Source: Bacteroidota bacterium (lineage in GTDB: Bacteria; Bacteroidota; Ignavibacteria; Kapaibacteriales; UBA2268). Taken from it: a stretch of 64,000 nt of DNA. The notes beneath the pieces were generated by a model that was not told where the DNA came from, made no database searches, and saw nothing but the letters and a program-made list of their open reading frames with translations. The stretch lies in contig JBDQHL010000001.1 of assembly GCA_040264895.1 (NCBI GenBank), positions 79,060 to 143,059 on the forward strand. Reading direction: 5' to 3'. Made by a program: the position numbers and the translations under genes. Below are positions 13,677 to 64,000 of the stretch, piece by piece (position 1 is the first letter of the stretch; each line of letters begins with the position of its first letter).

Positions 13677-16600
13677 TTATTTAACTATCTGTACTTTCAT
13701 GAATTCAGTTACACCACCAGCATTCATTCTTAGAGTATAAGAACCGTTGCTTAAGTCATTCGCAAATCTTTCTTTGATATCAAAGTCGAATGCGTGAGGA
13801 CCTACAGTGTAGTTACCTTCGTTAAGTACGCCGATTACTCTACCAACGTTGTCAATTAGTTCGAATGTTACGTAAGCAGCTTTGTTAAGGTTAAAGTTAA
13901 CAGTACTTACAGTTGTAACTGGATTAGGAGACACATTAGTAATGTTAGAAACAGCAGCTACTTCATTGTTCTCTACACTAGATTGAATATCTCTGTAGAT
14001 AATGAATGCGCTTATTTCACTATTAGTAATAGTCAATTTAGCTTCACCAGTTGCATCGTCATATTCGAAGCTGTTACCTGACAAATATCTTACATTAGGA
14101 TCGTGCATATTGATGTGGAAGATTGAACCATCAGAAGCAGGGTCTCTTAAGTACCAGCTTGAACTAGAAGGGTTCGCAGTTGCATCATCAATAGCAGGAA
14201 CGTCATTTGCATTCCACTCAATAGTAATTGGGTAGTTAATTGCAGTTTGACCATTCTCACCACCAACTTGTATTTGAGCTACATATATTTGGTCTCCAGT
14301 AGCAGAAGCTTCTGGATAAATATTTCTCAAGATACCGTTAATTGTTGGTACAGTCCATCTTGCGTCAAATATATCTTGTTGTGGATAAGGAGGTAATTCA
14401 TACTCACAATAGTTAGGGTCTACCTTACCTTCTTTATCACCATCTCTACCATCACCAGTTGAAACGTTAGTTTCAGCAGTACCAAACTCTAGCACTTGGA
14501 AAGAACCAATTGAGTTACTTACTGTTATAGGAGCAGCAAAGAATGTTGGATCTGAACGTTTGAATCTAAATCTGTAGATAGTAATTTCACCTTCAGCATC
14601 AGTAGCTCTAATTTCAACAGTAATTCTACCGTCTGCATCAGGAGTTACATTTTCAATTGCTTGAGTTACGATTACATCAACTCTTACAGAGTCATTATCA
14701 ATGTCTTCACCTTTAAGTTCATATTGATCTAATTCTACACCTTGTACAGGTTGAGTAACTTCTAGAGTAACTAATTCTTGTGGAGTTACATCTGCATCTC
14801 TCAAGAAGTCTTTGTCTATTACATAGATAAAGTAGTCATTATCTAAGTTACTATTAGGATCTACACAGTCTACGTTTGGAGCAACTGCGATGTCTGGACC
14901 TTGATTGCTAGCTTCAACTCTTAGGTCGAATTCCATCAATGCAGGTAAGCCATCTTCATCAGTTACTAGTACAATTACTTTCTCATCTTTAAGAGCGTCT
15001 TCTACTTCAGGAGTACCATATAGTAAACCACTTTCAGGGTTGATTTTCAACCATTCTGGAGTGAATTGACCATTAGTACCGTAATCAACACCTTCTTCCC
15101 AAACACCAGCTTCAGTATAACATGGATCTTTAGGAATATCACCTCTACCATCATAAATTAATTCAAATTCATGCTCTTGGAAGAAGTTAGGGTCGAATAC
15201 TTTGATTGCTTTAGAAGAATCAAGTAATTGGTTGTTATAATCAATACCTTCTACAGCATTTGGTAAAGTAGTAGTTAAGATTTCAGGAGCAAAGTTGATT
15301 AGAACTTCTAATCTTCTTTCCATTCTTCCACCATGACCATCATTTACTACAAATACGAAAGATGTATCAGTGTTATATTCACCATTGTTTCTGTTTAACG
15401 GAGTCAATATGCTTACTGCATCAGCTCTGTCGATACGTATGTTCAATTTACCGAATGTAGTAAAGTCTGCACCTAATAGATCTTGTGTAGTCTCACCATC
15501 ATATCTGTATAGATATTGGTCAGCCATCCAAAATGGTCTTTCTTGATCGATAATTTGATCAACATTACCATCTTCTCCATTAATTGAAACAGTGTCAATT
15601 ACTACTGTATCACCAGCAGAGATAGTTTTGTTTACAAAACCATAAGCAGTTCTACCATATCTGAAGTCCCAGCCGTGCTCTTGCTCAGCATAGAAATCTT
15701 CAATTTCGTCATCAGTATTTATGTCAATTTGAAATCTTAACTTATCAGTTACGTTTGCTATTAATCTTGGCTCATCTTCATTAGTTTCACCACAAGTCAA
15801 CACAGTTGGCTCGTAAATAGCAACAGTATCTAGGATAGTAACACCATCAGATTCGTAACGATATTTCTCAACAACACCAGTACCTGGCTCTATGTACTCA
15901 GGGATCTCGTCAACTACGAAGATTTTGAATTCGTAATCAGCTTTCCATCCGTTAGCACCACCAAAGTCGATAGTATCTTGTTGTAAGTATCTTGCCCTGT
16001 CTACATCATAAGAACCAGCATTGTAGTAAGGACCAAAAGTCTCTACATACTTCTCTAATTGCTCATCGCTGAATAAACCAGAGTTTACTAATGAATCTAA
16101 TGTTCTGTAATGTGGAGGATAGTTTGCAGCAGTAACATCTACTGTTTCACCACCAGGAACTACATAAGGGTTAACAGGACAACCTTTTAATACAATGTGA
16201 CCAGTAGCAGCGTCTTTCACTGAATTGTTGTCGCTTACATATAACGTATCTGCTTGTAACCAATTAGCTAAACCAGAATTGTTATCTACATCCCAAGAGT
16301 AAGTTAAGTAAGTATAATTTTCCCCATCAGCTAGTGCTCTAGGATCGTAGAAGTTGTTTGAATCAACTGCAGTAATCGAAAGAATACTGTCTCTACCTTC
16401 GTTAAAGTTACCAGGATATTCTCTATCTTCTCTTAAGAAAATAGTATTAGCGAAATCATCATAGTATAATGTATCTAAAATATCATTAGCTCTCTTAACA
16501 GGATCCAATGAAGGAACCAATTTAACTAATGTATCATTTTGTAATTCAACTATATCGCCAGTGAATACTGGAGGATAAGTGCTTCTTTCGATTTTGAAAG

Positions 16601-52917: not shown

Positions 52918-53262
52918 TTACCTTTCTCTTACTACTTTATAAGTCTTCTTACCATTTCCACAAACCAGTGTAACAAAATATACGCCCGATGGGTATTCTG
53001 ATAAGTCTAATTGTAACTGATTTTCATAAACAACTTTCGTGTTATTAAATAGATCTACACTCTCTGTATTAGTAATCGAATAATCGATTATCTTCGATTC
53101 ACAAGCTAATTTTATATTAACTAGGCCATTAGTAGGGTTGGGCGAAATTGAAACTTCATTAACTAACTTTTCTTCGGTGTTAGTTTGTGTTGGGTCAACT
53201 ATAGTAAAATATGCATCTGAAGTGTCTGTTTGTATGATGATTGAAATTGAATATTGAAACAA
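52918..53262 (-). CDS. orphan T9SS CTD-only ORF (probable gene remnant)
   Basis: ISPNPTNGLVNIKL...GVYFVTLVCGNGKKTYKVVRER. It has no signal peptide and no passenger domain. Its 5' end overlaps the divergent ORF. Confidence 0.45.
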   Translation of the reverse strand: MFQYSISIIIQTDTSDAYFTIVDPTQTNTEEKLVNEVSISPNPTNGLVNIKLACESKIIDYSITNTESVDLFNNTKVVYENQLQLDLSEYPSGVYFVTLVCGNGKKTYKVVRER

Positions 53263-53819: not shown

Positions 53820-55748
53820 TTACTTATTATCGTCTTCGTCAACTACTGTGTAGTCAGCTTCCTCTACATCATCATCCGAATCTGCACTAGCGTCTCCAGT
53901 TGGCTCGCCGCCTGATGCTGCACCTTGTGAAGGATCACCTTGTGCATTTGGGTCGCCATACATATTCTGCGATGCTTCGCTCCATGCCTTATTTAGCTCT
54001 TCCATAGCTGGCTTAATGTCAGATTCGTTGTCTTTCAGAGCTGTTTCCAGTCTGCTCTTAGCACTTTCTATAGCCGAGATTTGCTCTTGGCTTAGCTTTT
54101 CGCCCACTTCTTCTAACTGCTTGTTAGTCGAAGCTACTAGTGCGTCAGCTTGGTTGCGAGATTCCACAGCTTCTTTCTTTTGCTTATCAGCTTCAGCGTT
54201 CAACTCAGCATCTTTCTTCATTTTTTCTATCTCTTCTTTCGATAGTCCAGAAGAAGACTCAATTCTGATTTTTTGCTCTTTACCAGTTCCTTTGTCCTTA
54301 GCAAATACATTCAAGATACCGTTGGCATCTATATCGAACGTAACTTCTACCTGAGGTACACCACGAGCTGCTGGTGGTATTCCGTCTAAGTGGAATTTAC
54401 CTAGCGATCTGTTATCTGCTGCCATCTTTCTCTCACCTTGTAGAACGTGTACTTCTACTGATGGTTGATTGTCAGCCGCAGTCGAGAACACTTCCGATTT
54501 CTTAGTCGGTATAGTAGTGTTCGACGGAATCATTGGAGTCAATACGCCACCTAATGTTTCGATACCCAATGTTAGTGGAGTAACGTCAAGTAATAATACG
54601 TCAGTTACATCGCCACCAAGTACACCACCTTGCACAGCAGCACCAATTGCTACTACTTCGTCAGGGTTCACACCTTTCGATGGATCTTTACCGAAAAAGT
54701 CTTTTACTAATTCTTGTATCTTAGGGATACGAGTAGAACCACCCACTAAGATGATTTCGTCAACTTCGTGATTCGAAATACCAGCGTCTTTCACTGCTTG
54801 CTCACATGGCTTTAGCGTTCTTTGGAACAAGTCATCACATAAACTCTCAAACTTAGAGCGAGTGATAGTAATGTTCAAGTGCTTAGGGCCGTCTTGAGTA
54901 GCTGTGATGAAAGGTAAATTCACATCAGTTTGCATAGATCCAGAAAGCTCAATCTTAGCTTTCTCGCCTGCTTCTCTTAATCTTTGTAGTGCCATAGCGT
55001 CGTCGCGAAGGTCAATTCCTTCTTGCTTTTTGAACTCTTCTGCTAAGAAATCAATCATTTTTCTATCGAAGTTGTCACCACCAAGGTGAGTATCACCATT
55101 TGTAGATTTTACTTCAAACACACCGTCACCAATCTCAAGGATAGATACGTCGAATGTACCACCACCAAGGTCATAGACAGCGACTGTCATATTCTTGTCT
55201 TTTTTGTCCAAACCATAAGCCAATGCCGCAGCAGTCGGCTCATTAATTATACGTTTTACTGTTAGTCCAGCAATTTCGCCAGCATCCTTAGTTGCTTGTC
55301 TTTGCGAATCGTTGAAGTAAGCAGGAACAGTAATTACCGCTTCCGTTACTTTCTCGCCAAGATACTCTTCAGCTGTTTGCTTCATTTTTGTCAAAATCAT
55401 AGCAGAAATTTCTGGTGCAGAATACTTCTTACCATCTATATCTACTCTGATTGAGTTGCCATCGTCGGATGGAACAACTTTGTAAGGAACTAATTTTGCT
55501 TCTTCACTAACTTCTTCCAATCTGCTACCCATAAATCTCTTGATAGAGTATATAGTGTTGTGCGGATTAGTAACTGCTTGTCTTTTTGCAGCTTGACCAA
55601 CCAAACGATCGTCATTTTTAGTGAATGCAACCATAGAAGGAGTAGTTCTAGAACCCTCGGAGTTAGCTATAACTTCGGGCGAACCACCTTCCATAACTGA
55701 AACGCAAGAATTTGTCGTTCCTAAGTCAATTCCAATTATTTTTCCCAT
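53820..55748 (-). CDS. dnaK: molecular chaperone DnaK (Hsp70)
   Basis: [17 protein letters not shown] and [11 protein letters not shown] motifs, a full-length 642 aa, and an acidic C-terminus. Confidence 0.98.
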
Positions 55749-55885
55749 TTTTATTACCTCTTTTCAGTATTAAATTATTATTTTGTCTATTTGTCATAAA
55801 ATTTAGGACACAATGTCTGTAAATTCTACATTTATGTGCTAAAGTGTATGGCGAAAGAACTGTGCCAAGTTTTTATTTTAGAATA

Positions 55886-55909
55886 ACCCGCCCTATTTCT
55901 AAGGCAGGT
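55886..55909 (-). terminator. weak hairpin downstream of the hsp20 pair
   Basis: On the minus-strand RNA, ACCUGCC...GGGCGGU forms a 7-bp stem with one G-U pair. The tail is only moderately U-rich. Confidence 0.3.
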
Positions 55910-55935
55910 ATTATTCAAGCTTATCTGGTATGATA

Positions 55936-56388
55936 TTAGCTAATCTCTACTTCCAGCTCTTTAAGTTTTTCTGGCTCTTTTTTGTTCAGTGTTACCTTCA
56001 GCAAGCCGTCTTTGAACTCAGCGTTAATGCTGTCCGTGTCCACATTGTCAGGTAACATGAACGAGCGGGTGAACTCACCGAAGCTGCGCTCTACTCTTAG
56101 GAAAGTAATGCCGTCTTTCTCTTCTTCCGTCTTGTTTTCGCGGTTTTTTGTCCCCTTTAGGACTAATACGTTGCCGTCGTTAATGCTTACCTTTATGTCG
56201 TCTTTCTTCACTCCAGCTATCTCTGCTTCCAGTGTAATTTGCTTTTTGTCTTCGTGTAAATCAATCGATGGATTGAAGCCACTGTTGTTGTTGAACATTC
56301 TGTCTGTATCAAATTCATCTAACATAGAGTTCATTATATTAGTCAGTGAGCTGAAATTTCTGAATGGATCGAATTTTACTAAACTCAT
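55936..56388 (-). CDS. Hsp20/alpha-crystallin family small heat-shock protein
   Basis: Alpha-crystallin domain: PSIDLHEDKKQITLEAEIAGVKKDDIKVSINDGNVLVLKG...AEFKDGLLKVTL. Confidence 0.9.
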   Translation of the reverse strand: MSLVKFDPFRNFSSLTNIMNSMLDEFDTDRMFNNNSGFNPSIDLHEDKKQITLEAEIAGVKKDDIKVSINDGNVLVLKGTKNRENKTEEEKDGITFLRVERSFGEFTRSFMLPDNVDTDSINAEFKDGLLKVTLNKKEPEKLKELEVEIS

Positions 56389-56405
56389 TTTAGAATACCT
56401 CCGTA

Positions 56406-56816
56406 TTATTTTATATTAATTGTTTTTGGTTTGAGTGTTTCTTTTTTCGGAATGCTAATCATCAGCATACCATTCTTAAAGTTTGCGTCTATTTTCTCAG
56501 TCTCGTACTTAGTCGGAATAATAAATGAACGTTTGAAGTCAACTGAGCTAAGCTCATCAATCATCAATCTTTCTCCCTCGCTCTCGCCGATTGTTCTGCT
56601 TGCCGATAGCGTCATTACATTTTCGTCATTCACCACTAATTTCATCGTCGATTTGTCCACTCCCGGCAGCTCTACCACAAAGTTTAGAGTGTCTTCCACT
56701 TCCGAAACTCTTACTTTCGGCTTAGTAGTCGCTTCTCTTTCTTCGTGAGTGATATTGCCTACTGGTGCAAAAAATCTTTCAAAATCAGTCATTGGTGTTC
56801 TTCTTTGTACTAACAT
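56406..56816 (-). CDS. Hsp20/alpha-crystallin family small heat-shock protein (divergent paralog)
   Basis: PKVRVSEVEDTLNFVVELPGVDKSTMKLVVNDENVMTLSA...ANFKNGMLMISIPKK. Confidence 0.85.
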   Translation of the reverse strand: MLVQRRTPMTDFERFFAPVGNITHEEREATTKPKVRVSEVEDTLNFVVELPGVDKSTMKLVVNDENVMTLSASRTIGESEGERLMIDELSSVDFKRSFIIPTKYETEKIDANFKNGMLMISIPKKETLKPKTINIK

Positions 56817-57887: not shown

Positions 57888-58751
57888 ATGAAAATTTTAT
57901 CCTTTCTGTTATTAGCATTATTATTTTTTTCCTGTAAGGAAGAAAACTCTACCGTACCTAGTGATAACGGTTATTTTAGCTCTGGTAAGACAGCATTAGT
58001 CATGGTAGTAGAAAATTCAGATAGGGCTAACGAACAGATAGAAGACCTAGCATTTGAAACATACCCCTCGGAGACTTTACAAATCTTTTCAGATATATTT
58101 AGTGTTCCTTTCGACTCACTATATGGTAAGGATCTGAATGCAATTTTAGATCAATATGGTGAGCCTTGGCAGATAGAAACTATAATAGATAACACTAATG
58201 GCTATTATGATGAAATTATAGTATTAACTGATAGTACTGCAACTAAGGAAAAACTAAAGGAAGAGCTTCAAAAATTAGCAAGTCAGAATTATAATATAGA
58301 TATGGTTTTCAGTTTACACGGATCACAAACGAACATTGTTTTTGCTGACGAAAGTATCCCAGTAGACGAAGTTACAAAAGAACTACAAGATTTAGATGTG
58401 CCTATTAGGGTTTTGTACCAGACTAATTGCAAAAGTGCAAACACTATTGGTTTATGGAATAGATTGGGAGTAGTTGCTTGCAACGGCACTGTAGACAATA
58501 ATTACCTTACTATATTTGCACCTGCTAATTTTATTAAGCATTGGGTCAGTGGTAAATCCTATTATGAATCTGTAGAAGGAGCATATAATAATGAAATTGC
58601 AACTCTAAAATCTTATAATAATATCCTACCTGTTCTGGATTATATTACTCAAGGTAATTACTTAGCGGGAAGCCTACCAATCTATTCAGGAAAAGACTTA
58701 ACTATAACAAAAGACGACTTTATAGTAGATGACTCGGGTAATGCCCCATAG
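57888..58751 (+). CDS. lipoprotein with caspase-like (clan CD peptidase) His/Cys dyad pattern
   Basis: Lipobox LLFFSC. VLTDSTATKEKLKEELQKLA...IDMVFSLHGSQ and IRVLYQTNCKSAN are spaced 37 aa apart, mirroring the SGHG and D-x-C-x-SG strands of C14/C13 peptidases. Confidence 0.4.
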   Translation: MKILSFLLLALLFFSCKEENSTVPSDNGYFSSGKTALVMVVENSDRANEQIEDLAFETYPSETLQIFSDIFSVPFDSLYGKDLNAILDQYGEPWQIETIIDNTNGYYDEIIVLTDSTATKEKLKEELQKLASQNYNIDMVFSLHGSQTNIVFADESIPVDEVTKELQDLDVPIRVLYQTNCKSANTIGLWNRLGVVACNGTVDNNYLTIFAPANFIKHWVSGKSYYESVEGAYNNEIATLKSYNNILPVLDYITQGNYLAGSLPIYSGKDLTITKDDFIVDDSGNAP

Positions 58752-58764
58752 TTATTGCCTAATA

Positions 58765-60744
58765 TTAAAACGCTACACTTACTCCACCATAAACCATTCT
58801 TCCTGGTGCCGATATTCCGATTCGTGTTAATCTTGATTGGTCAAATATATTATTTGCTCGAATAAAGAAGGTATATAAGTTCTCGTTATAAGTAGTTAAA
58901 TAACTCATTCGCAGGTTTACCAATGCTGATTGGTCTATCTCTTCCAAAACGTCAGTTATATCAGATATACCGTATTGACGACCCATAAAGTCCAATTCAG
59001 CCATTAAGTCAAAACCACCGCCAACACGCCAATCTGCTTGCAAAAATGCAATGATTTCTGGCTTAGCTTCCAAATCTTGTTCTACACCATCTACCGTACC
59101 CTTGCTATTCATATAAGTGAAGTGACCAGATATGTCAATATCATTTGTAACATAATACTTAGCTCTAAATTCGGCCCCTAATATCGTAGCTTCATCTAAA
59201 TTGATTCGCTGTCTTCTGTTAAGTGTGTCACCTTCCACGGCAGCTTGTGTTATCAAATCTGAAAAGCTATTTGCAAAAAGTGATAGTGTAGTCTCCAAAT
59301 CTCCTGCTGAATAGTCTATACCGATTTCCGATAGTATCCCTGTTTCTGGTTTCAGATTAGGGTTAACTACGAATCTATTAAGTGCTGCAGAAAATGACTC
59401 ACGCATGGTTGGAAATCGGCTCTTTTTACCAACATTACCAAATAGATTAATACTACTGCTTATGTTATAATTAACTCCAAATACGGCAGCAATATCATCA
59501 TACGAACTACCATTCGCTTCCGTAAAGTCACCGGCATCACTGATATCGAATCTGTCATAAGAAGAACCAATAGTAAATACCCAGTCGCCTTGCAATCTTT
59601 TGTACTCCGCTCCAAAGCTTGATGTTGTTTGTCCGTAGTCTTTGGTCACAGAATTACCATCTGCATCCTCTATTTCTTCAGTATGAGAAGAAGTAAACCC
59701 ATTAATAGTGAAATTCAATATATCGTTATCACTTATGTCAGCCTTCAAGTTCATTCGAGTGCCAAAAGTGTTGTCATCATCATATTGTATTTCATTAATT
59801 TCTTCGAATGCTATGCTTTGGTAATCCTCAATTGTCTGATTAAACTGATCGCCCCATATAGCTCCCCTAAAAGATATGCTTTCAGATATTTGTGAGCTAC
59901 CATTTACAGTAACTATACTTCTCATCCACTCGGGATATTTCCAGAATCGAGTGTTAACACCTTCTGGGTTGTTAACTGGTATTACCCCTTTATTTCCGTT
60001 TACATGATTGAAGGACACACCTAATTTGTCTGTCTCACTGAATGAATATTCCCCACGTCCGTAAGCCGTAATCCTCTCGTTTTGACTATTCGGAATCAAA
60101 TTTTCTCCCTCTCCAGTTCGTAAGTTCAAGCTATTATCTTTCGGAGCTTTCAGCCCATCACGTGTCATGAATGAGATATTACCCAGATAGTTGAATTTAC
60201 CATCTTTCCCTTCAATTTTTACAGCGCTATACTTCCTTCCAGCTTCTCCAATTTGCAATGAAACATTCCCCCCTAAACCTTCGCTTTCTCTTTCGGAAGT
60301 AGTAATATTTATTGCACCACCCAACACATTTGCCCCATACAGAACTGAGTTCGTACCAGTACTAATTTTTAGGTTTCCAATTATGTCTGTGGGTATCATA
60401 CTTAGGTCCAACCTATTATCCCAAGGAACATTGAAGTATATGCCATCGAAGAAAATGGAGATAGACCTTTCCCCTGCTCCACGTAGAAATATAAGTGACT
60501 CGCCACGCGAGTTAGTTTGCAGAAAACCAGCAGGGATTACAGCATTCAACTCTTCAAAATTAACAGCATCCTGTTCTTTAATTTCGTGATATTTTATCTC
60601 TTTTATATTAGTAGGAGTAATATTAACTCCCTTATCCGATTCAGATACTATCTCCCCAAGCCTATAAGTTTTTATAGTGTCTCTGGGCGATTGAGAATTA
60701 GATAATGTTGCTACTAATAATAAGATAAATACTAATCTTTTCAT
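58765..60744 (-). CDS. TonB-dependent receptor (BtuB-sized, 659 aa)
   Basis: Signal peptide, plug motifs (SLIFLRGAGERSISIFFDGIYFN, SVLYGANVLGGAINITT) and a terminal GGVSVAF. Confidence 0.9.
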   Translation of the reverse strand: MKRLVFILLLVATLSNSQSPRDTIKTYRLGEIVSESDKGVNITPTNIKEIKYHEIKEQDAVNFEELNAVIPAGFLQTNSRGESLIFLRGAGERSISIFFDGIYFNVPWDNRLDLSMIPTDIIGNLKISTGTNSVLYGANVLGGAINITTSERESEGLGGNVSLQIGEAGRKYSAVKIEGKDGKFNYLGNISFMTRDGLKAPKDNSLNLRTGEGENLIPNSQNERITAYGRGEYSFSETDKLGVSFNHVNGNKGVIPVNNPEGVNTRFWKYPEWMRSIVTVNGSSQISESISFRGAIWGDQFNQTIEDYQSIAFEEINEIQYDDDNTFGTRMNLKADISDNDILNFTINGFTSSHTEEIEDADGNSVTKDYGQTTSSFGAEYKRLQGDWVFTIGSSYDRFDISDAGDFTEANGSSYDDIAAVFGVNYNISSSINLFGNVGKKSRFPTMRESFSAALNRFVVNPNLKPETGILSEIGIDYSAGDLETTLSLFANSFSDLITQAAVEGDTLNRRQRINLDEATILGAEFRAKYYVTNDIDISGHFTYMNSKGTVDGVEQDLEAKPEIIAFLQADWRVGGGFDLMAELDFMGRQYGISDITDVLEEIDQSALVNLRMSYLTTYNENLYTFFIRANNIFDQSRLTRIGISAPGRMVYGGVSVAF

Positions 60745-60854
60745 ACTTGAAGTTTGGTTCTGTGCTTACAATTAGACATTTCGAATTGCAAAGATAGCAA
60801 AGTGAAGTCAAAATTTTGAATTTTTAGAATAATAGTATAGATTTGAATTACTGA

Positions 60855-61012
60855 TTAGTCATTAGTTATTGGGAATCCTGTGAAAATCAGGAACGGTTCC
60901 GCCGCTGTAACGAGATACGACCGAACTATGTAATTAATTGCAGTCACTGTGCTTTAGGCGCGGGAAGGCAGTTCGGAAGGTTTGAAGCTTGAAGTCAGAA
61001 CACCTACTAAAT
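60855..61012 (+). promoter_or_regulatory. cobalamin (B12) riboswitch aptamer
   Basis: GGGAATCCTGTGAAAATCAGGAACGGTTCCGCCGCTGTAA core, GCGGGAAGGC, and a B12-box-like GAAGTCAGAACACCTAC in canonical order on the + strand, with P1 pairing TTAGT/ACTAA. Confidence 0.85.
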
Positions 61013-61187
61013 TATACTCATTGGATAAATTCTTAAATTAGAGAATTGAACATCTGCGGAATACAGATGCTTTGAGGTAAAAAGCACCCCCTAACGTAGC
61101 GATTGGCTACCCCTGACTCAAGTGCCTTGCCTCTTAATACAGAAAGAAATAGATTTAATATTTAATAATTAACAAGGTACAATTCTT

Positions 61188-63527
61188 ATGAATAAGTATT
61201 TAATAGCTTTTGCTGCATTGCTATGTAGCTATGGAATAGTTAGTTCTTCTGTCATCACCGAATCTGCGGTACAGTATGAAGTTGGTAGTAATGTGGTAGG
61301 GATAACTGAAAACCCGATAGACAATGTGGTGCACATTTTTTGTGCTGGTATTGACGTAAACGAGAACGGTATATACGACGAGGGTGAGGATGAAAAACCA
61401 TCTTGGTGGAGAGTTGACCCCAATGGCTCATCAGTGGAGCCTACATTATTAAAAGAATTTGACACTTATTTCATGGAGCCATTTGTACTGACAACCGATA
61501 TTACCAAAGGGTATGCAACTGTTGTACTCAATTTTGCATCTATTATTGAAAATGAAACTGTAACTCAAGATGGTTATACTCAAGGATTTCAAATGAAAAA
61601 TGCCGTACCTGCATTCAAAATTGATGTTGATAATGGTGAGCCAGTAATCTTAAAACAGTTCGACACTTATTCTGTTGCGGCTATTAATTCTACTATTAAT
61701 GGGATTGTTTCTGTTATTAATAATGAAACAAAAGAGGAGAAATTAGTTAACCTAAACGGCAATATTTACTCGGCAATTTTTGTTGATTTAGAAAATGATG
61801 GAACAGAGGAGTTAGCAGTATTAACTGAGTCAGGTTTTTTCAACTTCTACCAAATAACTAATGATGCAGAGGCGACTTTAGTAGCAACTTATGATGCAAG
61901 CACAGAACCACAATTCACAGGTACCTTTGGTGATTTATATTCAGACTATGGTGCTGTATTCACTTTGTTCGAGGGGTCTAGCTCTGTAATAAAAATCACT
62001 GCAGATTATAACGGTACCGTGTCTAGTGATATTGAAGAAAAAGACTGGTTCTCTGAACCAACTCTTTATTTCCCAATTACTACTCAATGGAATTTGATTT
62101 CGAATAGGGATTTTGAGACTCTTGTATTTAATTTCCTTTATGAATTAGAAAAACATAGAACAGGTCATGTAATTCAAACTGCCTACAAAGCAGGTGACAG
62201 ATTATATTTGGGTTCCAGCAATGTAGTAATACCATTTACAATAACTGATGAAAGGATTGAGGACATTAAGTATGTTGATCACAATTTTTCTGGTTATCAA
62301 CCATTGGATATATTGAGTGACGGACCTGAGTACTATGTGTTGAACTTAGGGGTTGACTTCGATTTCAACGGTGTGGTAGATTCTGACAAAGGTGATGTAA
62401 GTTCTTCAATCACCAAGTTTGTTGGCCTTGGTCAACAAGCATTTGTACCTGGAGAAACGCGTGAAATAGCAGATTTACCATTCTATTTGAACTTTCCCAT
62501 CAATACTAATTTGTCGTTCGATGGAATTATAATCCTACCATCTGGTAATAAAGCATATATGTTCGATATAGAAAGTGAGACTATTATAGACTCAATTGAT
62601 GCTGGTATGTATGTTACTTCAGCATTCTCAGTACTCGATTACTTAGTTTTAGGTACCAGAGATTATGATGAAGGCAAGAGCTATGTTAGAATTATTAATG
62701 ATGAAGTTGGTATAGATGTAAGCGAAGAAGTTGGTCCTAATGTAATTGATGTAACAGTCTATCAGAACGGTTCTGGATTTGGTGTAATTTCTGTTTCTGA
62801 AGGTAACTTCAACGAGTCAGATGCAACTATCAATATTTTGAAACTTGGTTTTGTAGGATTCACTGAAAACATAAGCATAGATGCAGGTATGACTGGTAGC
62901 AATGTAGTTACTAATTCTATCCAAACTAAAGCTGCCGTAGTAATGAACGGTAGTCACGAGATTCATATTATTGACTTATTAAAAGCAGAAAAGGAGCTTA
63001 CATTCTCAACAGGAACAACGGGCTATGGGGGTCCAAGAGATGTGATATTTATAAATAAATTGCTTTTTGTAACTACTTATAGCAATAGAGTTTTAGTATT
63101 CGATTCCGAAAATGGTGATAAGCTATCTGAATACAGTGTAGATGGCCACTCAGAAGGAATAATAGAAGCGAATAGTTACTTTTATATAGCTAACAATAAC
63201 TACTCAAACTATAAACCAAATAGCAGAGTAGTAGCTTATAATAAGAATCCTAGAATAACAAATGTAGATTCTGAAGCTAGTGACTATACCTCTCCCATCC
63301 GTATCTACCCGCACCCAGTTGGGAACGAGTTCCATATGGTGTCAGATGAGTTAGTGGGTGAGTTGGAGATTGCAATCATAGACGGACAGGGCAAGATAGT
63401 AGCCACACACTCTGCTGTTGCCGATGGCGAAGTAGCAATGAGTGCAGATGAACTTGGTCTTGGTGCTGGTAACTACACTGCGATTATCAATGGAACCAAA
63501 GCAGTGAGATTTATAGTCATTAAGTGA
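61188..63527 (+). CDS. T9SS-sorted beta-propeller surface protein (candidate BtuG/YncE-like B12-capture protein)
   Basis: Signal peptide and repeated strand-turn blocks typical of propellers (for example RDVIFINKLLFVTTYSNRVLVFDSENG). CTD reads IYPHPVGNEFHM...GNYTAIINGTKAVRFIVIK. First gene after the B12 riboswitch. Confidence 0.6.
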   Translation: MNKYLIAFAALLCSYGIVSSSVITESAVQYEVGSNVVGITENPIDNVVHIFCAGIDVNENGIYDEGEDEKPSWWRVDPNGSSVEPTLLKEFDTYFMEPFVLTTDITKGYATVVLNFASIIENETVTQDGYTQGFQMKNAVPAFKIDVDNGEPVILKQFDTYSVAAINSTINGIVSVINNETKEEKLVNLNGNIYSAIFVDLENDGTEELAVLTESGFFNFYQITNDAEATLVATYDASTEPQFTGTFGDLYSDYGAVFTLFEGSSSVIKITADYNGTVSSDIEEKDWFSEPTLYFPITTQWNLISNRDFETLVFNFLYELEKHRTGHVIQTAYKAGDRLYLGSSNVVIPFTITDERIEDIKYVDHNFSGYQPLDILSDGPEYYVLNLGVDFDFNGVVDSDKGDVSSSITKFVGLGQQAFVPGETREIADLPFYLNFPINTNLSFDGIIILPSGNKAYMFDIESETIIDSIDAGMYVTSAFSVLDYLVLGTRDYDEGKSYVRIINDEVGIDVSEEVGPNVIDVTVYQNGSGFGVISVSEGNFNESDATINILKLGFVGFTENISIDAGMTGSNVVTNSIQTKAAVVMNGSHEIHIIDLLKAEKELTFSTGTTGYGGPRDVIFINKLLFVTTYSNRVLVFDSENGDKLSEYSVDGHSEGIIEANSYFYIANNNYSNYKPNSRVVAYNKNPRITNVDSEASDYTSPIRIYPHPVGNEFHMVSDELVGELEIAIIDGQGKIVATHSAVADGEVAMSADELGLGAGNYTAIINGTKAVRFIVIK

Positions 63528-64000
63528 TAAAAATTCTATCATATATTACTGTGATTTTGATTGGTCTCAACTTTACTTATGCAGCAGACACCAACTCGGT
63601 GGATATGCAAGAAGTTGTAGTAGAAGAGAAATCAGAACCCAGTAATAATGGGTTTAACTATCTCTCGAATCAATCACTAAGTGAGAAAGATTTGAAGCAG
63701 ATAAACCCAGTGCAAGTTAGCGACGCTCTGCAATATATATCTGGTGTCAATATTCGAGATTACGGTGGACTTAGCTCTGTGCAAACTGTTTCGCTAAGAG
63801 GGTTGCCATCTAATCAAACACTAGTACTATTCGATGGTATGAATATCACGAATTCCCAAACCGGACTGACTGATGTTAGTAAGCTATTTATCAGCTCGGT
63901 TGATAAAATAGAGGTGGCAAAGGGAGCTAGTTCATCGCTCTATGGGAGCAATGCTATTGCAGGGGTAGTAAACTTGAATACAGGTAACACAATGGACAAC
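63524..64000 (+). CDS. TonB-dependent receptor, BtuB-like, 3'-partial (runs off the window)
   Basis: GTG start in a GTGA overlap with the upstream stop. Signal peptide IKILSYITVILIGLNFTYA, TonB-box-like MQEVVV, and plug motifs DALQYISGVNIRDYGG and SSLYGSNAIAGVVNL. Open to nt 64000. Confidence 0.85.
   Translation, partial: MIKILSYITVILIGLNFTYAADTNSVDMQEVVVEEKSEPSNNGFNYLSNQSLSEKDLKQINPVQVSDALQYISGVNIRDYGGLSSVQTVSLRGLPSNQTLVLFDGMNITNSQTGLTDVSKLFISSVDKIEVAKGASSSLYGSNAIAGVVNLNTGNTMDN

Follow-up and report, generated by a model that had tools for sequence, protein, structure and literature searches.

We analyzed a 64-kb stretch of DNA (64,000 nucleotides of contig JBDQHL010000001.1, positions 79,060 to 143,059 of the forward strand), hereafter the window, and consider it moderately likely that its end carries the 5′ part of a B12-repressed corrinoid-uptake (btu) operon of an uncultured Kapaibacterium-like bacterium from the Fibrobacterota–Chlorobiota–Bacteroidota (FCB) group. 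The gene order is a cobalamin riboswitch, the gene of a 779-amino-acid secreted double-propeller protein (hereafter DP779), btuB, the gene of a BtuH-like protein with a C-terminal sorting domain (CTD) of the type IX secretion system (T9SS), and the gene of a BtuG lipoprotein. According to the interpretation that we favor with modest confidence, the B12-repressed operon encodes accessory corrinoid-capture proteins that are anchored on the cell surface by T9SS, DP779 being a predicted corrinoid binder. The window ends within btuB, and its copy of the locus was read further via L021, a 469-kb contig that was found by exact protein sequence and is identical to the window across 12,813 shared nucleotides. 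Successive genes of the operon overlap by 4, 11, and 38 nucleotides. The main features are as follows.

60826–61025, + strand: cobalamin riboswitch aptamer RF00174 (Rfam, 73.0 bits with a gathering threshold of 31.5, E 4.5e-16, full model 1–189)
around 60992–61006, + strand: B12 box (AGUCAGAACACCU aligned to the B12-box region)
61188–63527, + strand: DP779 open reading frame, 779 amino acids, secreted double propeller, with an ATG start 162 nucleotides downstream of the aptamer
63524–64000, + strand: N-terminus (signal peptide, plug) of a BtuB-like TonB-dependent transporter that runs off the window
L021:14240–15112 (= window coordinates 65427–66299), beyond the window end: BtuH-like protein, 290 amino acids, between btuB and btuG

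The aptamer exceeds the gathering threshold across the full RF00174 model, including the B12 box, and is the sole gathering-level Rfam match in the window. The initial annotation of this DNA had described a well-formed + strand B12 aptamer, which the RF00174 scan bears out; its start, placed at 60855, lies about 30 nucleotides inside the aptamer, and the spacer to the ATG, given as roughly 175 nucleotides, measures 162. Aptamers of 68–106 bits occupy the same position in 14 other distinct loci. In each of the 15 distinct BtuB-linked loci examined (the window included), the first DP779-family gene is immediately preceded by the aptamer; these are 12 core loci (the window, L001–L004, L007, L009–L011, and L015–L017), L013, L014, and L026. 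Synteny is kept in the 12 core loci, with one to three tandem DP779 paralogs. Locus L013 encodes a 465-amino-acid single-propeller version, followed by a TonB-dependent receptor, a CTD protein, and BtuG, while L026 encodes a 791-amino-acid CTD protein whose first propeller matches the C-terminal propeller of DP779 with 98% hhalign probability. Ligand-dependent repression of the downstream gene by the riboswitch is predicted. The contig of L013 (CAZXYS010000009.1) is labeled "uncultured Hyphomicrobiales"; the locus is rich in AT, its products include T9SS-CTD proteins and a BtuG lipoprotein of the Bacteroidota type, and the contig is probably mis-binned.

The gene following DP779 starts with a GTG at 63524 that overlaps the DP779 stop codon TGA at 63525–63527 (GTGA). 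Both this overlap and the likeness of the receptor to BtuB had been noticed initially and are confirmed here. The Plug domain scores 86 bits, and the best NCBIfam model is TonB-B12, the score (142.7 bits) being far below the equivalog cut-off of 599.7. The full receptor in L021 has 637 amino acids, and its best PDB match, at full length, is Bacteroides thetaiotaomicron BtuB1 (8BLW_A, E 4.8e-37); further BtuBs from Bacteroides and the BtuB of E. coli rank next. A BtuB combines a plug with a 22-strand barrel; here, the plug is present, a barrel is seen in the homolog, and the gene is under riboswitch control.

The start of the 290-amino-acid protein gene overlaps the receptor stop. In profile searches, the C-terminus of its family matches T9SS CTD structures (8GLK_D, E 4.7e-7, and gingipain CTDs), while the N-terminus matches the BtuH part of BtuGH (8BLW_B residues 396–497, E 3.3e-4) and BtuH2 (7BIZ, E 0.69; PMC8941943). 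The T9SS sorting-domain family PF18962 is found in 23 of 25 family members. Like BtuH (BT1956; 7BIZ) and the BtuGH fusion, the protein thus contains, at its N-terminus, a domain similar to the BtuH B12-binding domain; unlike BtuH, it is apparently anchored through a T9SS CTD, not a lipid, and lacks PKD domains. T9SS display as a substitute for lipidation is seen more clearly in this BtuH-like protein than in DP779. More than 390 family members occur in Ignavibacteria, Kapaibacterium, and Chlorobi-type genomes; linkage to B12 or adjacency to btuB is not universal, e.g., L025 has the 290-amino-acid gene alone.

The BtuG gene in L021 encodes a 370-amino-acid lipoprotein with the lipobox LWGC and overlaps the preceding gene by 38 nucleotides. 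The protein matches BtuG1 structures (8PTF, 8PTD, 8BLW_B) at full length with E 8e-16, and BtuG2-type structures as well. Orthologs in relatives reach E 8e-21 and 3e-35, one of them above the Pfam DUF5074 threshold, and their lipoboxes are all of the form L-x-G-C. The same BtuG gene is present in all 10 relatives with complete loci. No btuFCD genes were found within 10 kb downstream of the operon in L021.

The presence of a true BtuG lipoprotein in the same operon and in 10/10 complete relatives argues against the initial proposal that a T9SS-displayed protein fills the place of BtuG at this locus: DP779 is an extra first gene, and BtuG is not replaced. The more general idea behind that proposal, that B12 capture at such a locus involves T9SS-displayed proteins, is supported. 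We considered the corresponding model, in which DP779 itself serves as the surface lid or partner of BtuB and does the job of BtuG without lipidation. It is consistent with the overlap of the DP779 stop and the BtuB start, a coupling seen in most relatives, with single-propeller-plus-CTD relatives in L019 and L020 that are coupled to a TonB-dependent transporter in the absence of a BtuG gene, and with the remote relationship of the C-terminal propeller to BtuG described below. However, besides the bona fide BtuG in the operon itself and in the complete related loci, a gap of about 450 nucleotides separates the propeller gene from btuB in four loci (L002, L007, L011, and L017), a GIY-YIG nuclease gene intervenes between the last propeller gene and btuB in L026 (4898–5227), and a copy number of one to three does not fit a 1:1 lid. 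We regard the lid model as improbable. The gap in L002 contains a 141-codon open reading frame without a family assignment (14808–15233). No second riboswitch was found in the propeller–btuB gaps of L026, L002, L007, L011, and L017.

The architecture of DP779 is as follows.

61251–62252, + strand: N-terminal propeller, residues 22–355, variable domain (AlphaFold2 model; net charge −37)
62253–63251, + strand: C-terminal propeller of about seven blades, residues 356–688 (domain model with a predicted local distance difference test score, pLDDT, of 85 and a predicted template-modeling score, pTM, of 0.85)
62796–62810, + strand: SEGNF motif in the C-terminal propeller
62943–62960, + strand: MNGSHE motif in the C-terminal propeller
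63303–63518, + strand: probable T9SS type A CTD, residues 706–777 (TIGR04183, 19 bits)

The N-terminus of the protein is hydrophobic (MNKYLIAFAALLCSYGIVSSS), and the protein as a whole is highly acidic (net charge of about −71). Pfam contains no family for it, and Pfam and NCBIfam searches gave only a weak CTD match. A search of 5.8 billion clusters yielded 24 close relatives, all from Ignavibacteria, Chlorobiota, or Kapaibacterium-type metagenome-assembled genomes. The wider family, collected by an exhaustive hidden Markov model search of 1.84 billion representatives, comprises 299 clusters and falls into two size classes of about 450 and 780 amino acids. The AlphaFold2 model, based on 22 homologs, is all-beta (pLDDT 84, pTM 0.75) and contains, after the two propellers, a disordered linker (689–712) and a terminal beta-sandwich (714–777). 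Modeled alone, the C-terminal propeller forms approximately seven four-stranded blades. A Foldseek search with the whole model returned tandem WD40 double propellers. The initial description of a signal peptide followed by propeller repeats therefore holds as regards secretion and fold (AlphaFold2, Foldseek); the protein contains two propellers rather than one. Mean pairwise identity is 39% for the N-terminal propeller, 61% for the C-terminal propeller, and 84% for the CTD.

T9SS cargo proteins combine an N-terminal Sec signal with a beta-sandwich CTD that follows a flexible linker, and DP779 shows both; T9SS sorting of this copy is probable. The CTD match covers positions 1–71 of the 72 in TIGR04183 at 19 bits, with a cut-off of 23, and the motifs YPxP and GxY and a C-terminal K are present. 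PF18962 does not match the window copy of DP779; it is found in 13 of 22 close relatives and in nearly all wider relatives, and single-propeller relatives score above its threshold (37.3, 35.4, and 52.4 bits). Source records name relatives "T9SS type A sorting domain-containing protein". Accordingly, of the initially proposed T9SS CTD, the full-length match, the motifs, and the above-threshold relatives stand, while the score of the window copy itself is below threshold. A separate 114-amino-acid protein, consisting almost entirely of a Por_Secre_tail domain, is encoded at window positions 52918–53262 on the − strand (= L021:1731–2075) and argues independently for the use of T9SS sorting signals by this genome. 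Within the DP779 family, conservation is highest in the CTD, an uncommon pattern for a domain that is presumably removed by cleavage; this might reflect gene conversion among tandem paralogs or a specific docking role.

Comparison of the C-terminal propeller profile with PDB gave 1L0Q as the top match (E 8.5e-5), followed by BtuG1 (8PTD, 8PTF, and 8BLW_B; E 2.6e-4 to 1.2e-3). The alignment with BtuG1 is in register across BtuG blades 1–3, pairing SEGNF of DP779 with SEGLF of BtuG, VVMNGSHEIHIID with VVVNVSSTVEVID, GPRD..LFVTTYSN with QPRA..AYICSYDG, and EGI..YIANNN with EDI..YVSNSG. Alignment of the C-terminal propeller with the operon's own BtuG by hhalign recovers the same local match (53% probability, E 1.3e-4). 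In contrast to these domain searches, the whole-protein profile gave only an insignificant match to Drp35 among PDB sequences, and a single-sequence PDB search with residues 505–701 was uninformative. Foldseek placed generic WD40 propellers first for the C-terminal propeller, E. coli YncE (3VGZ) having the best query-normalized TM-score among the 50 listed matches (0.68; target-normalized 0.72). Neither for this propeller nor for the whole model did BtuG or BtuK entries appear among the 50 listed matches, and hence the fold search cannot discriminate here; the comparison with BtuG suggested initially thus yielded WD40 propellers. YVTN/YncE-type propellers are already known as structural relatives of BtuG, and a propeller of the 1L0Q type was superposed with BtuG in the original BtuG paper (PMC6143338). 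DP779 resembles such propellers, 1L0Q (the S-layer protein of M. mazei) being the best profile match and 3VGZ giving the best listed TM-score; unlike DP779, they have no B12 context, tandem propeller, or T9SS CTD.

BtuG is a single seven-bladed propeller with a lipoprotein signal and clear DUF5074 family membership. DP779 falls outside this definition, as it has two propellers, no canonical lipobox (the N-terminus reads ...AALLCSYG), and no DUF5074 match (0 matches in the 22-sequence alignment). Judging from the profile alignments, kinship with BtuG is confined to its C-terminal propeller, which is best regarded as a remote BtuG/YVTN relative. BtuG2 contacts B12 via Glu-55, Phe-58, and Asn-107, among other residues (PMC13616437, section 3.4). 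In DP779, E538, F541, and N587 of the motifs E-G-x-F and V-V-x-N are invariant or nearly so, and their spacing of +3 and +52 fits that of the three BtuG2 residues. Hence, the E-G-x-F and V-x-N motifs may correspond to the B12 contacts of BtuG2, and conservation of these motifs suggests that a face of the DP779 propeller may bind corrinoids. BtuG2 attracts B12 through a negative face (PMC10404256).

On the proposed function, DP779 would be exported via the Sec pathway, transferred to T9SS, and fixed to the cell surface, where its acidic, BtuG-related C-terminal propeller would capture corrinoids and pass them on to the BtuB–BtuG complex. Its role would be accessory, comparable to the roles of BtuK, BtuH, and BtuJ in Bacteroides. 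Ligand or partner specificity would be diversified by the variable N-terminal propeller and by the one to three tandem paralogs.

Several observations weigh against this interpretation. The correspondence with BtuG2 residues is based on numbering offsets, not on structural superposition, and the similarity to BtuG is weak (E of about 1e-4, 53% by hhalign), with generic WD40 propellers ranked by Foldseek above any BtuG. More distant relatives in L019 and L020 (22–24% identity) combine a single-propeller CTD protein with a TonB-dependent receptor and have neither a riboswitch nor BtuG, and therefore the fold is not intrinsically tied to B12. On the sorting side, the window CTD scores below the curated TIGR04183 cut-off, and hhalign of the DP779 CTD with that of the 290-amino-acid family is not significant. 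As regards the regulatory mechanism considered below, the switching helices do not vary inside a clade, so that their support comes from few lineages only, and the CUCA:UGAG helix has only 4 bp in the window.

The points concerning the CTD, i.e., the sub-threshold score of 19 against 23 bits, the lack of a Pfam match for the window copy, and the non-significant hhalign comparison with a verified CTD family, would also suit a CTD that is not a functional T9SS signal, with DP779 being a periplasmic or generally secreted YncE/BamB-like propeller. We consider this very unlikely: the CTD model is matched along its entire length at the very end of the protein, the three relatives listed above exceed the PF18962 threshold, most of the family has precomputed PF18962 matches, relatives are named after the sorting domain in their records, the modeled beta-sandwich follows a disordered linker, and the same genome encodes the other CTD protein nearby.

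A stronger competitor retains co-regulation of DP779 with B12 uptake and dispenses with the binding of free corrinoids: the protein might take B12 from foreign carrier proteins, attach to B12-producing cells or particles, or work enzymatically on corrinoid precursors. Riboswitch control and operon membership suit this possibility, the variable N-terminal propeller and paralog expansion suggest diversifying recognition of proteins or ligands, BtuK2 is a Bacteroides propeller paralog that does not bind B12, and weak Pfam hints point to lactonase, PQQ, and FG-GAP propellers. On the other hand, no significant catalytic motif or enzyme family was found for DP779 by Pfam, NCBIfam, or PDB profile searches, and the BtuG blades that contact the ligand are those with which its best-conserved motifs align. 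On balance, a non-binding DP779 appears unlikely, while deserving serious consideration.

In the Bacteroides paradigm, a riboswitch controls BtuB and BtuG, the latter forming a lipoprotein lid (PMC10404256, PMC6143338), and the accessory binders BtuH, BtuJ, and BtuK are all lipoproteins (PMC13616437). The locus described here resembles the BtuB–BtuG loci of B. thetaiotaomicron (BtuB1G1, 8BLW) in that a cobalamin riboswitch fronts the operon, the operon encodes a TonB-dependent transporter whose nearest solved structure is BtuB1 and a lipobox-bearing seven-bladed BtuG propeller, and genes for extra candidate surface B12 binders are included. Unlike in B. thetaiotaomicron, the BtuH-like gene separates BtuG from BtuB, the accessory proteins carry T9SS CTDs (a probable one in DP779) in place of lipoprotein signals, btuFCD is absent from the downstream 10 kb, and the host belongs to an uncultured Kapaibacterium-like lineage rather than to gut Bacteroides. 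A precedent for tandem accessory propellers is the pair BtuK1/BtuK2 (BT1486/BT1487) of B. thetaiotaomicron operon 1, where one paralog binds B12 and the other does not (PMC13616437). Both cases involve accessory propellers encoded by tandem paralogs in a riboswitch-controlled btu operon and distinct from the BtuG lid. Unlike DP779 with its two propellers and probable T9SS CTD, BtuK is lipidated and consists of a PKD domain and one propeller; DP779 has no PKD domain and no lipobox. The BtuK structures 4R5O and 9S6C were not matched by DP779 in PDB profile searches, nor were they among the 50 listed Foldseek matches. The resemblance to BtuK is functional and organizational only.

The leader upstream of the DP779 start codon contains the following elements.

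60897–60901, + strand: aptamer loop L5 (UUCCG), partner of L13 in the kissing loop (position from the cmscan alignment)
61017–61024, + strand: CUCAUUGG, directly 3′ of P1, candidate partner of the post-P13 UGAG element
61028–61047, + strand: small hairpin Px (AAUUCU...AGAAUU) between P1 and P13 (RNAalifold)
61051–61069, + strand: hairpin P13 (CAUCUG-CGGAAUA-CAGAUG), with loop L13 (CGGAAUA, 61057–61063) complementary to L5
61073–61087, + strand: UGAGGUAAAAAGCAC, proposed anti-sequestor element, pairing with 61122–61133 (−12.8 kcal/mol)
61122–61133, + strand: GUGCCUUGCCUC, putative switching strand with 61074–61087 or the Shine–Dalgarno region as alternative partners
61173–61180, + strand: CAAGGUAC, Shine–Dalgarno-like region 8–15 nucleotides upstream of the ATG

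A 6-bp hairpin at 61051–61069 had been noted initially, exactly as it is found here, and the expression platform had been called unclear. The hairpin is in fact P13, whose loop is complementary to and co-varies with aptamer loop L5, as in a regulatory L5–L13 kissing loop that links the aptamer to the platform. P13 is invariant in 12 loci, even though their proteins are only about 40% identical, and L5 is identical in 11 of the 12 core loci. The pairing of L13 CGGAA with L5 UUCCG has 5 bp (duplexfold −11.1 kcal/mol for 9-mers including flanking stem bases). Elsewhere the two loops have changed in concert: L5 UUGCG is accompanied by L13 GCAA in L013 and by CGCCAA in L014, and L5 UAACG by L13 CGUU in L026. 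Complementarity is thus retained in three sequence versions across four lineages. By a rough estimate, chance alone would give a 4-nucleotide match between a 5-nucleotide loop and a 6–7-nucleotide loop about 3% of the time, and three independent versions are therefore unlikely to arise by chance. In L011 (9664–9842), L5 reads UACCG and L13 is unchanged, leaving only three kissing-loop pairs; this may be natural variation or an assembly error.

Hairpin Px shows compensatory changes across two clades (AAUUCU:AGAAUU versus UAUUCG:CGAAUA). Its 5′ neighbor CUCAUUG is kept in all 12 core loci and in L013, and as CUCAUU in L026, with GA in place of GG in L011. The element UGAGG(U/A)A stands directly 3′ of P13 in the clade of the window (clade A), in two loci of the other clade (clade B), in L013, and in L026; it reads UGGGGUGA in the other clade-B loci and AUGGGAA in L014. 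Two partners are possible for this post-P13 element, CUCAUUG beside P1 (4–7 bp) or the downstream CCUC element. The former duplex has −5.1 kcal/mol in the window, −9.3 in L013, and −7.6 in L026, while the latter, anti-sequestor helix is present in the minimum free energy (MFE) structures of L001, L004, and L013, with different sequences. In the window, GUGCCUUGCCUC can form mutually exclusive duplexes with upstream UGAGGUAA..GCAC or with the Shine–Dalgarno region, each of −12.8 kcal/mol; CAAGGUAC is paired with GUGCCUUG in the MFE structure of the leader. Constrained folds of the window leader gave −35.7 kcal/mol for the ON state and −32.3 to −34.1 for the OFF state, a difference below 3.5. 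CAAGGUAC is conserved in clade A, and AGGAG occupies the same place in clade B.

For the whole platform, RNAalifold recovered only Px, P13, and a short local hairpin. It misses long-range helices, as the alignment of the two clades breaks down past P13, and such helices were assessed for each sequence separately. A transcription-termination platform was dropped, since the terminator scan found no intrinsic terminator on the + strand. Pairing of the B12 box (AGUCAG) with CUGACU at 61112–61117 in the MFE structure of the window was attributed to chance; it is not conserved in L001.

Kissing-loop platforms of the L5–L13 type are known from the cobalamin riboswitches of E. coli btuB, env8, and T. 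tengcongensis. The window leader resembles them in having an aptamer, a P13 loop that pairs with L5, and predicted translational control by occlusion of the ribosome-binding site. Unlike in these riboswitches, its P13 lies about 120 nucleotides upstream of the start codon and does not include the ribosome-binding site, so that a relay of alternative helices is needed. We suggest that binding of intracellular corrinoid by the aptamer would bring L13 of P13 into contact with L5, and the kissing loop would hold the UGAGG element beside P13 against CUCAUUG beside P1. GUGCCUUGCCUC, thereby freed, would pair with the Shine–Dalgarno region and turn off DP779 translation, and the overlapping downstream genes would be shut off via translational coupling. 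In the absence of B12, UGAGGUAA..GCAC would pair with GUGC..UUGCCUC, leaving the ribosome-binding site free. Control would thus amount to translational repression relayed from the kissing loop through alternative helices.

Upstream of the operon, the window encodes a second TonB-dependent receptor (659 amino acids, 58765–60744, − strand), which is transcribed divergently from the riboswitch and is not behind it; a divergent TonB receptor, with 64–84% identity, is found upstream of the operon in 12/12 core loci. A 287-amino-acid lipoprotein without a family (57888–58751, + strand, lipobox FFSC) is located beside the divergent receptor in the window and in the closest relative. The heat-shock cluster further upstream (53820–56816, − strand; DnaK (HSP70) and two HSP20 genes, Pfam labels from L021) is unrelated to the btu operon. 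As for the distant relatives coupled to a TonB receptor (L019:9842–15171 and L020:895–4220), two paralogous lipoproteins of about 260 amino acids follow in L019, and the same architecture is possibly used for a different substrate in these two loci.

What is known of B12 capture at the cell surface comes almost exclusively from gut Bacteroides, in which the extracellular components are all lipoproteins. The locus reported here keeps the BtuB–BtuG core and adds two apparently T9SS-displayed components, an uncharacterized double-propeller family and a BtuH-like protein, and it recurs in environmental lineages of the FCB group, always behind a B12 riboswitch. New in this work are the DP779 family of uncharacterized double propellers, whose gene invariably comes first after the riboswitch, and the T9SS sorting domains on the BtuH-like protein and, probably, on DP779; in full-text literature searches, we found no report linking T9SS cargo to btu loci, and nothing relevant on Kapaibacteria and cobalamin. 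The leader, in turn, is a clean natural example of a kissing-loop platform with P13 remote from the ribosome-binding site. The evidence comes from uncultured organisms, the key function is predicted, and the findings should interest specialists in B12 uptake and in T9SS.

A bolder proposal, which we advance tentatively and rate as possible rather than probable, is that the extracellular cobamide relay of Kapaibacterium/Ignavibacteria-like bacteria consists largely of T9SS cargo, with DP779 representing a previously unrecognized class of corrinoid binders beside a T9SS-anchored BtuH. With equal reserve, its BtuG-derived propeller would be accompanied by a fast-evolving second propeller that tunes specificity or steals B12 from the carriers of competitors. 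If the DP779 propeller binds corrinoids, a new protein family would join the cobamide-binding repertoire, T9SS would be connected to micronutrient scavenging, and the construction of such relays outside the gut would become clear. A relay built of T9SS cargo would, if true, connect type IX secretion with vitamin acquisition for the first time.

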